IMG/VR virus record: IMGVR_UViG_3300034109_001012
Source: a virus
Length of the DNA: 64,000 nucleotides
Strand: one strand, 5' to 3'
Under the pieces are notes generated by a model that made no database searches, was not told the DNA's origin, and saw only the letters and a list, made by a program, of their open reading frames with translations. Shown in pieces: positions 47,735 through 49,455 of the stretch; positions within the stretch are counted from its first letter, which is position 1, and every line of letters starts with the position of its first letter. Both the position numbers and the translations under genes were made by a program.

Positions 47735-47921
47735 GTATCAAGTCAGTCAAGAAACAAGGCAATCATTAACGGCTGATCAGATATTCGATATCGGTGAAGT
47801 TGCAATCATGTATCAAATTAGTCAAGAAACAAGGCAATCATTAACTTCGTGACAAAAATTTGAAGTATCAAGTTAGTCAAAAACCAACACAATTGTTAAC
47901 GAACCAATACAATCATTAAAC
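47735..47921 (+). repeat. Three 36-bp direct repeats plus a half repeat (GTATCAAGTCAGTCAAGAAACAAGGCAATCATTAAC)
   Basis: Copies at 47735-47770, 47810-47845 (34/36), 47865-47900 (29/36), half copy 47901-47921 overlapping the iscB stop; gaps of 39, 19 and 0 nt. Confidence 0.85.
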
Positions 47922-49202
47922 AACACATTCGAGGCTCGAATAGGCATAACCATCAGCTTTCTGGAGTGGTTTCATGTATTTTGGATGAACACCATCTATC
48001 TTGTTTAAGGCAAATTTTGGAATTTGCCGGATCGCAATTCGACCATAATGGGTTCCCTTATTCTTTCCAGATGGAATCACAGCCTTAACATAATCCCCTG
48101 TTTTATACCCCATAAAACTCTTAATTCTTGCTTTATGGCATTTAGGAAAACCATACTTATCGGTTGTGACCCGTTGCCTTACCCCATGCCCTTTAGCTGA
48201 TATTAATAAAGGTTTAACATCCTTAATAATCAGATTTTCGGGAGTAGAAGCACCAACGCAAGCCGCGTCAATCCAGTGAGCTTTAGGGAATTTTTGACGG
48301 CATCGGTTAAACTTAGTCCGTCCCCCCGTCCCAACTTCTACAGGTAAGCCAGTCTCCTTCAATCGGTTGTACAAACACCACCGAGTAGAGTTAACGGCGG
48401 CTGCATCTTTGAGAGGGGCTTTAACCCGTTTCAGGATTTTATTAAGCAATTCCTTCTTTTTAGAAAGGAAATCTTTAATGTCCTTAGCACCCTTTTTTTG
48501 ATTGCATTTATGGCAAGCGATCGCCAAATTAGAAACCCGATTACTCCCCCCTTTGGATCTGGGTATCAAGTGTTCAATCTCTAATCTGGTATCAACAGCG
48601 CCACAGTAAACGCATTGACGGTCAAACTTCTCCAAAAGGTATTCCCGAACTTCATACCCCGCTAACTCCCCTTGCTGATACTCGACACCGGAAACTTCTG
48701 GATTCTCCATAATTTGAGTGTCGAACCGTACCAACTCTTGAGATATCGCAGAAATAGGAGCTAACTTTCTTAACCGATTAACCCAAGTGATCACATTTTC
48801 AACCCGTGACATTAGACTCGGAGCTAACCAACCCTTAACCCGTGTGCGATTAAGAAAACGGGGTTGGCGGTATCTGGTTTTTCTACCTCGGCGACCCCTT
48901 CTTAAACTGCGTCGGGATTCCAGTGCATTCTTGATCACCATGCCACGATGTTGAATATCGGCGCCCCAAACAACTTCACCCGTGCCGTCGTTTACCAAGG
49001 CAATGCCAGTAAATTTAGAACCAGGATCTATCTTTAGCCTCAAATCTTCAGTTGAAGATTTGAGAGCATATTTTAGGATGATTGTAAAAGGTTGATGCCG
49101 AAAAACTGCGGCTTTCTTTTGAGTTAAAAGAATCCTAGCTTTTGCGGGTGAGATTGGATTTAATGGACGCTTTTCGGTATCCATCACAAATACTTTAGAC
49201 AT
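47916..49202 (-). CDS. iscB: IscB-type RNA-guided endonuclease (OMEGA system; RuvC with inserted HNH)
   Basis: PLMP-like KRPLNP, RuvC-I [14 protein letters not shown], Arg-rich bridge [20 protein letters not shown], RuvC-II [48 protein letters not shown], RuvC-III [9 protein letters not shown]. Confidence 0.9.
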   Translation of the reverse strand: [428 protein letters not shown]

Positions 49203-49455
49203 TTAAAAATAACTCTTTCGAGCCTCCGATAAATCGGGTAATGTGTGCCTCGTCAATGTTATTGGGCGGTACTATCTAAGTGACACTGACTTAATTGCTG
49301 TACATCTGTTTAATCACTTAGTTATAGAGCTTGGAACTGGCAACGCATCCCAAGGTATGAACTTAAACACTTCCCAATAACGTAGCTCAGTAAAGAGCTT
49401 AGACTGGTTAACTATTTACCAACAAACTACATTGGTAAACCTTGATTCTTGACTG
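49203..49455 (-). ncRNA. Candidate omega RNA (guide-like 5' end plus structured scaffold) upstream of iscB
   Basis: ~250-nt gene-free leader with nested helices: 49415-22/49432-39; 49258-66/49373-81; 49276-83/49314-21; 49384-88/49395-99; 49226-37; GAAA tetraloop 49213-22. Confidence 0.6.

Follow-up and report, generated by a model that had tools for sequence, protein, structure and literature searches.

A gene for an RNA-guided nuclease in a phage genome raises the question of which RNA guides the enzyme, and against what. The window analyzed here, the whole 64,000-nucleotide stretch of IMG/VR record IMGVR_UViG_3300034109_001012, had been predicted from its letters alone to hold an IscB gene with a structured RNA upstream, a stand-alone OMEGA module possibly put to the phage's own use. 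We asked what this module is made of, what surrounds it in related phages, and where its guides would come from.

An iscB gene and its omega RNA in a Planktothrix phage

The window derives from a PaV-LD-like Planktothrix phage. It shares 90.6% nucleotide identity with Planktothrix phage PaV-LD, and its annotated genes include those for an integrase, DnaB, a Mu-type portal, Mu F and a tape-measure protein, as expected from the original prediction of a phage genome. The whole module (47709..49527, minus strand, as are all features described below) has no counterpart in PaV-LD, in which the slot is filled by an unrelated gene, ORF012R (106 aa). It occupies one conserved slot in all phage contigs, and IMG/VR contains 12 contigs of the same phage family with 95 to 97% identical IscB proteins in that slot. 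The window sequence itself is recorded in three independent assemblies (ENA ERZ27272067, ENA ERZ27271779, and JGI 3300044617). None of the 39 loci returned from a collection of species-representative genomes was a Planktothrix locus, and the nearest was 61% identical. The prediction that TnpA and IS ends are missing was also borne out: Pfam annotation gave no Y1 transposase match in the annotated parts of the window or sister contigs, and no IS ends were recognized for the module. Neither of the marks of an IS200/IS605-type transposon, a nearby TnpA or LE/RE ends with dispersed copies, was therefore found. tnpA lies near only ∼1.5% of iscB genes, so its absence is the rule (bioRxiv 10.1101/2023.03.14.532601; PMC9755519). 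Two routes to element boundaries failed. PaV-LD, compared as an empty site, had the unrelated ORF012R and yielded no ends, and among multicopy cellular IscBs the Mahella contigs break inside the element, while the Hormoscilla elements, in which the guide abuts P1, served as reference only.

The 428-aa ORF (iscB, 47916..49202) has intact RuvC-I, RuvC-II, RuvC-III and HNH catalytic motifs. It matched NCBIfam NF040563 (“RNA-guided endonuclease IscB,” guided_IscB; cutoff, 175) with 468.5 bits, residues 4 to 317 covering all profile positions (1 to 314 of 314), and Pfam RRXRR (1.7e−72, 243 bits) and HNH; the Cas9d and Cas9 profiles gave 49 bits (cutoff, 375) and 23.5 bits (cutoff, 100). The best matches among solved structures were IscB structures. 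Every motif quoted in the original prediction was found in the protein: KRPLNP (residues 11 to 16), KIDPGS (57 to 62, including D59), an Arg-rich stretch (97 to 116), SQELVRFD (154 to 161, E156), CVYCG (197 to 201), EIEHLIP (208 to 214, H211), and AHWIDAAC (308 to 315, H309 and D312). The protein has a split RuvC domain with an inserted HNH domain, and D59, E156, H211, H309, and D312 fall in conserved motifs that align with the solved IscB structures. iscB is under purifying selection, with dN/dS of 0.02 to 0.17 for most pairs. Judged by its motifs, the gene product is an intact RuvC and HNH RNA-guided DNA nuclease that would be expected to cleave its targets. Public records name the exact window protein “McrA,” a label under which such systems are hidden by annotation.

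A covariance model search confirmed the proposed omega RNA 5′ of iscB as a full-length HEARO RNA (Rfam RF02033, 49238..49453; 126.9 bits versus a gathering score of 83; model positions 1 to 211 of 211), located 35 nt upstream of the iscB ATG on the same strand. The predicted 9-bp helix, which pairs 49381-49373 (GTTATTGGG) with 49266-49258 (CCCAATAAC), corresponds to the long-range helix in the HEARO consensus. Alignment with relatives supports the fold, with compensatory changes in 23 of the 47 predicted pairs. The body of the omega RNA is conserved among phage variants, and the window copy is intact, with an Rfam score as high as those of the sister phages. A promoter-like site (TTGACC-17-TAAACT, 49489..49517), whose predicted start is ∼28 nt upstream of the HEARO start, is conserved across all sister phages, including those without iscB, and the omega RNA is most likely transcribed from this promoter of its own.

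Repeats 3′ of iscB and a complementary anti-repeat

The original prediction holds for IscB and its 5′ HEARO RNA but is incomplete, as it took the locus for a stand-alone module and missed 36-nt repeats immediately 3′ of iscB. Three direct repeats of this length, 81 to 100% identical to one another, lie just downstream of the gene at 47735-47900. In the direction of iscB, a truncated repeat comprising the first ∼20 nt (47901..47920; repeat-search copy at 47891-47919) overlaps the stop codon and is followed by a degenerate repeat 1′ (GTTAACAATTGTGTTGGTTTTTGACTAACTTGATAC, 47865..47900), a 19-nt spacer remnant (47846..47864), repeat 2 (GTTAATGATTGCCTTGTTTCTTGACTAATTTGATAC, 47810..47845), the 39-nt spacer 2 (47771..47809), and the terminal repeat 3 (47735..47770). 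The last codons of iscB (…SSLECVV and stop) read into the truncated repeat, and the C-terminal residues differ from those of the sister phages because the ORF now extends into it. The window's own spacers had no match in phage, plasmid, or IMG/VR collections, and spacer 2 returned nothing in an exact 22-23-mer scan of IMG/VR. What is left of the array is one truncated and three degenerate repeats with two spacers that have no known target, and the window phage has kept the nuclease and tracr-like RNA intact while its repertoire is nearly gone.

The 12 sister phage contigs carry arrays of 9 to 19 identical 36-nt repeats directly 3′ of iscB, with a period of 70 to 80 nt and up to 18 true spacers per array, all unique and 33 to 56 nt long. 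When a CRISPR array is taken to be at least three near-identical direct repeats of 23 to 55 nt with unique spacers of similar length, the window, with spacers of 19 nt and 39 nt, is a weak case and the sister phages are strong ones. The range of spacer lengths in the sister arrays is unusually wide. Internal spacers are common to the sister arrays, the iscB-proximal ends differ, and degenerate repeats lie at the distal end, a pattern suggestive of spacer turnover at the iscB-proximal end. Pfam searches of the window and sister contigs, in which the small ORFs at 21 to 44 kb were partly profiled, gave no match to cas1, cas2, or cas4 that would account for this apparent turnover.

Two other explanations of the repeats were discarded. 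Each repeat contains TTGACT and lone units stand before small genes, so the repeats might be operators or promoters, but this fails on 19 identical units with unique, plasmid-matching spacers. The published I-D, III-B, and III-D repeats of the Planktothrix host are unrelated to the phage repeat (PMC9398003), and on that ground hijacking of host Cas proteins was discarded. When metagenomes were scanned for the repeat, 9 contigs turned up, nearly all of them fragments of the array or locus from the same phage family, and no cellular source emerged; one contig (L101) had a lone 24-nt match in a different context. Single repeat-like units also occur upstream of small genes in the sister phages, so the repeat may have a further role.

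An inverted copy of the 36-nt repeat lies at 49440..49467, beside the effector gene, as in tracrRNA-dependent systems. This anti-repeat takes in the former P1 5′ strand (GUCAAGAAUCAAGG) together with the bases immediately before it, and over 23 nt it shows 83% complementarity to the repeat copies at 47737-47759 and 47812-47834. The predicted repeat:anti-repeat duplex has an energy of −20 to −23 kcal/mol, compared to −12 ± 3 kcal/mol for shuffled repeats. In the cofold, an 8-bp hairpin (UUUACCAA/UUGGUAAA, 49415..49438) separates the anti-repeat from the P1 3′ strand, GUUAAC (49407..49412), which is complementary to, and pairs with, repeat bases 1 to 6 (GUUAAY). Relatives have GUUGAC at the P1 3′ strand and form P1 from GUCAAC/GUUGAC; the phages have GUCAAG/GUUAAC, and the window P1 is degenerate, with GUCAAG against GUUAAC giving four of six pairs and the mismatches flagged in the Rfam alignment. 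On this evidence, the omega RNA carries an anti-repeat at its 5′ end in place of a canonical guide and P1 stem. The anti-repeat and the pairing of GUUAAC with repeat bases 1 to 6 make the omega RNA look like a tracrRNA, and since its P1 5′ strand is degenerate and lies within the anti-repeat, it most likely acts as one through the predicted pairing and processing. One sister phage (L050) has repeat bases 1 to 17 in cis, and Rfam sets HEARO position 1 there.

Spacer targets and competing explanations

Of the 77 spacers, nine have matches on Planktothrix agardhii plasmids, within or beside replication genes; 68 have no plasmid match, and 67 have no target of any kind. Eight distinct protospacers have a 3′ NNGG flank, with G at position 3 in all eight and at position 4 in seven, and spacer-protospacer mismatches lie at the spacer 5′ end. 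The sister-phage spacers thus show the foreign-element matches and shared adjacent motif expected of an array. In the three plasmids that were read completely, genes for DISARM, Shedu, and helicase/methylase functions are present. One spacer (L042_s02) perfectly matches its own phage, of the PaV-LD family, at a site flanked by CATA, without NNGG. A BLAST search of the spacers against GenBank phages gave one target, and an exact 22-23-mer scan of IMG/VR with five sister-phage spacers hit nothing but the arrays. A 3′ NNGG motif combined with a 3′ seed is also compatible with an effector that recognizes a 5′ CCNN PAM and reads the array on the opposite strand; no such effector was found among the window ORFs profiled.

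Together, the IscB/HEARO identity, the sister arrays, the anti-repeat complementarity, the plasmid protospacers with their motif, and the purifying selection make it likely that this is a phage-borne, CRISPR-associated IscB with a tracr-like omega RNA. In such a system, the crRNA would consist of a spacer followed by the 36-nt repeat, of which bases 1 to 6 would rebuild P1 with the GUUAAC of the omega RNA and bases ∼11 to 35 would pair with the anti-repeat; this pairing would place the 3′ end of the spacer at the canonical guide position of an omega RNA. The IscB of the sister phages would be directed to resident P. agardhii plasmids with a 3′ NNGG, and cleavage would eliminate a competing or defense-bearing replicon. 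The evidence fits the original guess that the phage uses IscB for its own ends, with host plasmids as the traced targets; homing, which was part of that guess, is not supported.

An OMEGA module that works by itself would use the HEARO RNA in cis with the 16 nt GUGUAUAAUGAAAACA (49469-49454) as its guide, the repeats being irrelevant to IscB. This would suit the full-length cis alignment to Rfam positions 1 to 211, the near loss of the window array, and the guide position in the Hormoscilla elements. It is nevertheless unlikely given the degenerate window P1, the location of the guide region within the inverted repeat copy, and the presence, next to iscB in sister phages, of long arrays that bear a TAM signature. 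In the window and a 19-kb PaV-LD stretch (L001), the 16-nt guide matched its own site and nothing else, and the same 16 nt with their downstream bases recur in iscB-less alleles, so this guide could not distinguish the alleles. The coexistence of iscB-positive and iscB-negative alleles at the same slot, together with the spacer that matches PaV-LD-family genomes, could instead point to homing or marker exclusion, an idea raised in a review (PMC13565253), in which IscB cuts co-infecting, module-less PaV-LD-like phages and repair copies the module in. We consider this very improbable: only 1 of 77 spacers matches the phage family, at a flank without NNGG, the slot in PaV-LD holds an unrelated gene, the guide region has no match in the 19-kb PaV-LD stretch, and the iscB-less alleles look like deletion products in which two repeats survive along with the promoter-like site and the anti-repeat. 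In an L050-type allele, recombination of the 17-nt cis repeat copy with a downstream repeat could generate such a form.

The module of the window phage could also be a decaying relic, its array deleted and its altered C terminus functionless, so that nothing is targeted. The three degenerate repeats with one 39-nt and one 19-nt spacer, the failure to find targets for these spacers, and the entry of the ORF into the repeat speak for this, and losses are seen elsewhere: one contig (L055) retains only 74 iscB codons, and two (L065 and L081) have a truncated omega RNA. The ORF of the window is intact with all catalytic motifs, the same sequence was assembled three times independently, the omega RNA scores as high as those of the sister phages, and the L050 ORF likewise enters the first repeat, yet that phage has kept a long array. 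Decay is an improbable account of the window phage, and we retain the tracr-like, CRISPR-associated reading.

Cas9 is considered to descend from IscB, and the locus bears on the route by which an omega RNA acting in cis gave rise to a tracrRNA and a crRNA array. Tentatively, it may be a natural snapshot of the transition from IscB to Cas9, in which L050 would form P1 in cis with its 17-nt repeat copy, the window phage and most sisters, having lost that strand, would depend on array-encoded repeats in trans, spacers would be gained and lost without Cas1-Cas2, and a temperate cyanophage would use the system to rid its host of defense-bearing plasmids. One phage population apparently has cis-capable and trans-dependent forms of the same RNA beside arrays that seem to turn over in the absence of recognized adaptation genes, so that a single system would allow tests of how the RNA split and of whether spacers are gained independently of Cas1/2. 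If the reading is correct, a phage turns a minimal RNA-guided nuclease on host plasmids that carry DISARM or Shedu, which is relevant to phage-plasmid-host conflict in a bloom-forming, toxin-producing cyanobacterium. In practical terms, the locus offers a 428-aa putative effector with a simple NNGG-type motif.

Relationship to known RNA-guided systems

The protein family and domain order are those of the IscB/HEARO OMEGA systems of IS200/IS605-type elements (such as OgeuIscB and GstIscB), as are the RF02033 omega RNA, its 5′ position, and its orientation, which is that of the upstream gene. Unlike these elements, the phage module is found at one fixed location of a phage lineage rather than in multiple copies and has no recognized IS ends, its P1 5′ strand is degenerate and part of an anti-repeat, and the gene is followed on its 3′ side by a CRISPR array.

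CRISPR-associated IscB has a precedent in DelIscB and its relatives (Altae-Tran et al. 2021, as described in PMC12660989). According to this account, DelIscB resembles the phage system in its effector of ∼400 aa, adjoining CRISPR array, repeat/anti-repeat segments in the noncoding RNA, and short motif, an NAC TAM comparable in kind to NNGG (PMC12660989); the comparison is one of layout and motif. In that account, the DelIscB array lies within the noncoding RNA upstream of the ORF (PMC12660989), whereas in the phages, as in type II loci, the effector gene stands between an upstream tracr-like RNA and a downstream array. Also different from the DelIscB described there are the long phage arrays (up to 19 repeats) that appear to turn over, the temperate cyanophage carrier, and traced targets that are host plasmids. 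A phage-borne, trans-acting, plasmid-targeting CRISPR-associated IscB was not found in the literature searched.

Type II CRISPR-Cas systems (Cas9 and the compact Cas9d) share with the phage locus the order of tracrRNA, effector, and array, a 36-nt nonpalindromic repeat, a G-rich 3′ adjacent motif, and a seed in the part of the spacer nearest to that motif. In contrast, the phage effector is 428 aa long with no REC lobe, and cas1, cas2, and csn2 were not found, so the locus lacks the REC-bearing Cas9 and cas1-cas2 that formally define type II. The Vibrio phage ICP1 encodes a type I-F system that is complete and includes an adaptation module, and uses it to attack PLE, a satellite island. The Planktothrix phages resemble ICP1 in pairing a phage effector with an array whose spacers match a host-resident, defense-linked replicon; they differ in having an IscB effector unaccompanied by adaptation genes and in apparently targeting plasmids instead of a satellite island.

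IscB, its omega RNA, and the phage that carries them

The 428-aa ORF at 47916-49202 (-) contains all of the IscB motifs that had been quoted for it, and its identity was confirmed by a Pfam search of the ORF (RRXRR, 1.7e-72, plus HNH families) and by the NCBIfam equivalog "RNA-guided endonuclease IscB" (468.5 bits; cutoff, 175). The NCBIfam Cas9 and Cas9d models scored far under their cutoffs. The nearest solved structures are IscBs, with which the catalytic residues D59, E156, H211, H309, and D312 align. The iscB dN/dS ratio is 0.02 to 0.17 in most pairs and is higher in pairs differing chiefly in the C-terminal region. 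A public source labels the exact window protein "McrA," and IscB homologs in 30 GenBank phage records are labeled "HNH endonuclease" or "hypothetical."

The structured RNA proposed upstream of iscB is HEARO (RF02033), found at full length by an Rfam search (126.9 bits, 49238-49453 [-]), 35 nt from the iscB start codon and the sole Rfam family across the entire 64-kb window. HEARO is the published omega RNA of IscB (PMC9755519; bioRxiv 10.1101/2023.03.14.532601), and the 9-bp helix described in the original prediction is its long-range helix. When the window RNA was aligned with three distant HEAROs and three variants from phages, compensatory two-sided changes were seen to preserve 23 of 47 predicted pairs. 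The original observation and its reading as IscB with an omega RNA are correct. A 20-nt inverted repeat (85% complementary, 16-nt T-rich loop) lies at 49456-49511 (-) across a promoter-like site and the anti-repeat described below; sister variants partly retain its pairing via G-U wobble on the iscB-sense strand.

The phage setting also held: the window belongs to a PaV-LD-like Planktothrix phage, with 90.6% nucleotide identity to PaV-LD in the shared parts, and encodes an integrase, an intein-bearing DnaB, a Mu-type portal, Mu F, and a tape-measure protein. As had been noted, tnpA was not found: no profile for it matched the annotated portions of the window or of its sister phages. iscB without tnpA is normal (bioRxiv 10.1101/2023.03.14.532601).

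PaV-LD lacks iscB; homology to it ends at 47708 and restarts at 49528, and its slot is occupied by the unrelated ORF012R (106 aa). In six iscB-less alleles (contigs L062, L064, L066, L071, L076, and L098), the promoter-like site and the anti-repeat persist along with two repeats. We infer that these alleles can derive from an allele like that of the sister phage L050 by recombination between its cis repeat copy and a downstream repeat. The iscB slot is a rearrangement hotspot. On contigs L065 (~1487-1730) and L081 (~5648-5890), the omega RNA gives way after its first ~170 nt to unrelated sequence with no iscB, and on L055 only iscB codons 1-74 are left, joined to the terminal repeat. Elsewhere in the window, DnaB (52574-55177 [-], 867 aa) contains an intein that carries a LAGLIDADG endonuclease domain (Pfam Intein_splicing, LAGLIDADG_3); DnaB is 579 aa in PaV-LD and 437 aa in one sister contig. 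The 115 bp at 47408-47522 are not in PaV-LD, where the flanks are contiguous (10664/10665 of the 19-kb stretch L001). A 154-aa ORF (51098-51562 [-], phrog_24928) between a DNA methyltransferase and the ORF009R homolog has no PaV-LD counterpart.

Repeat arrays and their predicted pairing with the omega RNA

Although IscB and its omega RNA stood, the original prediction of a stand-alone system had overlooked three 36-nt direct repeats directly 3' of iscB (47865-47900, 47810-47845, and 47735-47770). The last codons of the ORF (…SSLECVV*) fall within a truncated copy, which overlaps its stop codon. Twelve IMG/VR contigs from this phage family have a 95 to 97% identical IscB in the same slot, and the sister arrays contain 9 to 19 identical repeats with a 70- to 80-nt period and unique spacers of unusually variable length (33 to 56 nt). 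Close relatives have internal spacers in common but differ at the iscB-proximal ends of their arrays, degenerate repeats occupy the distal end, and some spacers are near duplicates distinguished by their final 3' base, all as is usual for polarized spacer turnover. Among the annotated sequences of the window and its sisters, none matched a cas1, cas2, or cas4 profile. The repeat is unrelated to the published P. agardhii repeats of types I-D, III-B, and III-D (PMC9398003).

The repeat also occurs inverted, as an anti-repeat (23 nt, 83% complementary), where the HEARO region has its 5' end (49440-49467 [-]). The guide-adjacent stem P1 is GUCAAC…GUUGAC (canonical) in relatives versus GUCAAG…GUUAAC in these Planktothrix phages; P1 is therefore weakened in cis, and its 3' strand can pair perfectly with repeat bases 1-6 (GUUAAY). 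In the cofolding prediction, a three-way junction forms: GUUAAC is paired to repeat bases 1-6 and the anti-repeat to bases ~11-26, and the omega RNA's own 8-bp hairpin falls between the two helices. The duplex is predicted at -20 to -23 kcal/mol, versus -12 ± 3 for shuffled repeats. The modeled pairing would set the 3' end of the spacer exactly at the canonical guide position, as inferred from the Hormoscilla copies. In L050, repeat bases 1-17 are still in cis within the omega RNA, and the GUUAAC of this copy is where Rfam puts HEARO position 1. To judge from these sequences, the larger finding is probably a phage-borne, CRISPR-associated IscB with a tracr-like omega RNA.

The window's own array is reduced. 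Relative to L051, its nearest sister by flanks (98% identity, 13 repeats), ~860 bp are missing, among them the leader and the bulk of the array. An assembly artifact is unlikely because three independent assemblies (two ENA, one JGI) record this sequence. The two remaining spacers had no match in the phage, plasmid, and IMG/VR collections, and an exact IMG/VR scan with spacer 2 returned zero matches. The nuclease and tracr-like RNA thus persist intact, but the repertoire has almost been lost, and any remaining activity of the system in this phage is uncertain.

Single repeats or repeat-like units, some comprising just the first 26 nt, also occur beyond the arrays of four contigs (L041, ~8640-9060; L048, ~7070-7900; L050, ~3900-4750; L062, ~8150-8580). 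Since they border 100- to 350-nt segments with small ORFs and ribosome-binding sites, and such units lie ahead of small genes in sister phages, the repeat may also be a promoter or recombination site. One 24-nt exact match to the repeat 5' part occurs in an otherwise unrelated context (555-578 of L101, a 1.7-kb metagenome contig).

Spacer targets

Of 77 distinct spacers extracted, nine match P. agardhii plasmids within or beside the replication region, at CyRepA1, a DUF3987 protein, or large ORFs adjoining ParA/RHH. The 3' flanks of eight distinct well-matched protospacers (ACGG, GGGG/AGGG, CCGA, CCGG, GTGG, GTGG, ACGG, and TCGG) have G at position 3 in 8/8 cases (chance of ~1.5e-5 for one position) and at position 4 in 7/8. 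Mismatches fall at the 5' end of the spacer; for most, the final 16 nt match perfectly. Such a 3' motif and motif-proximal seed are what would be predicted for an IscB/Cas9-type effector, although the 3' NNGG signal could formally be the 5' CCNN PAM of another effector reading the opposite strand.

PaV-LD-family genomes are matched by only one spacer, spacer 2 of sister phages L042 and L044, at the first codons of a 65-aa ORF (PaV-LD ORF019R) just downstream of the integrase (window 44655-44691 [+]; L042 13122-13158). It matches the carrier phage's own copy perfectly, and the 3' flank there is CATA (CATAAAAA), without NNGG. Five sister-phage spacers matched only the arrays themselves in exact IMG/VR scans.

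The targeted P. agardhii plasmids have in common a ParA/RHH module and a CyRepA1-type replication module. Among the three that were fully read, the genes found are those for DISARM (drmD, an MmeI-type enzyme, drmA, DUF1998, and drmC), for a Shedu nuclease, and for large helicases and N6-methylases (L105 9880-26341, L107 18295-24832, and L106 20334-34116).

Relation to other IscB systems

In the Nodularia phage vB_NspS-kac68v162 (L083, 2163-5652), an IscB homolog with 53% identity lies between two fragments annotated "transposase," with an IS607 family transposase alongside; the arrangement looks like that of an IscB element that landed in an IS607 tnpB within the phage. Searches of non-subscription literature for phage-encoded CRISPR with IscB and for PaV-LD with CRISPR turned up no account of the Planktothrix phage system, and the PaV-LD and Sandusky Bay paper nowhere mentions IscB or HNH.

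CRISPR-associated IscBs are already known, for example DelIscB, whose array lies inside the upstream non-coding RNA together with repeat and anti-repeat regions (PMC12660989). The layout of another IMG/VR viral contig, L054, resembles that of DelIscB: three 38-nt repeats (GTTACAACAGTCAATTTGCGAAAGTAGAGATGAAACCG; 4176-4358, 72- to 73-nt spacing) start ~570 nt and end ~390 nt upstream of an iscB (4748-6001) encoding a 417-aa, 49% identical protein. The Planktothrix phage system differs from DelIscB in that its arrays are long and turning over in the phage family, its carrier is a temperate phage, its traced targets are host plasmids, and its order is tracr-like RNA, effector, array, which is the order of type II loci.
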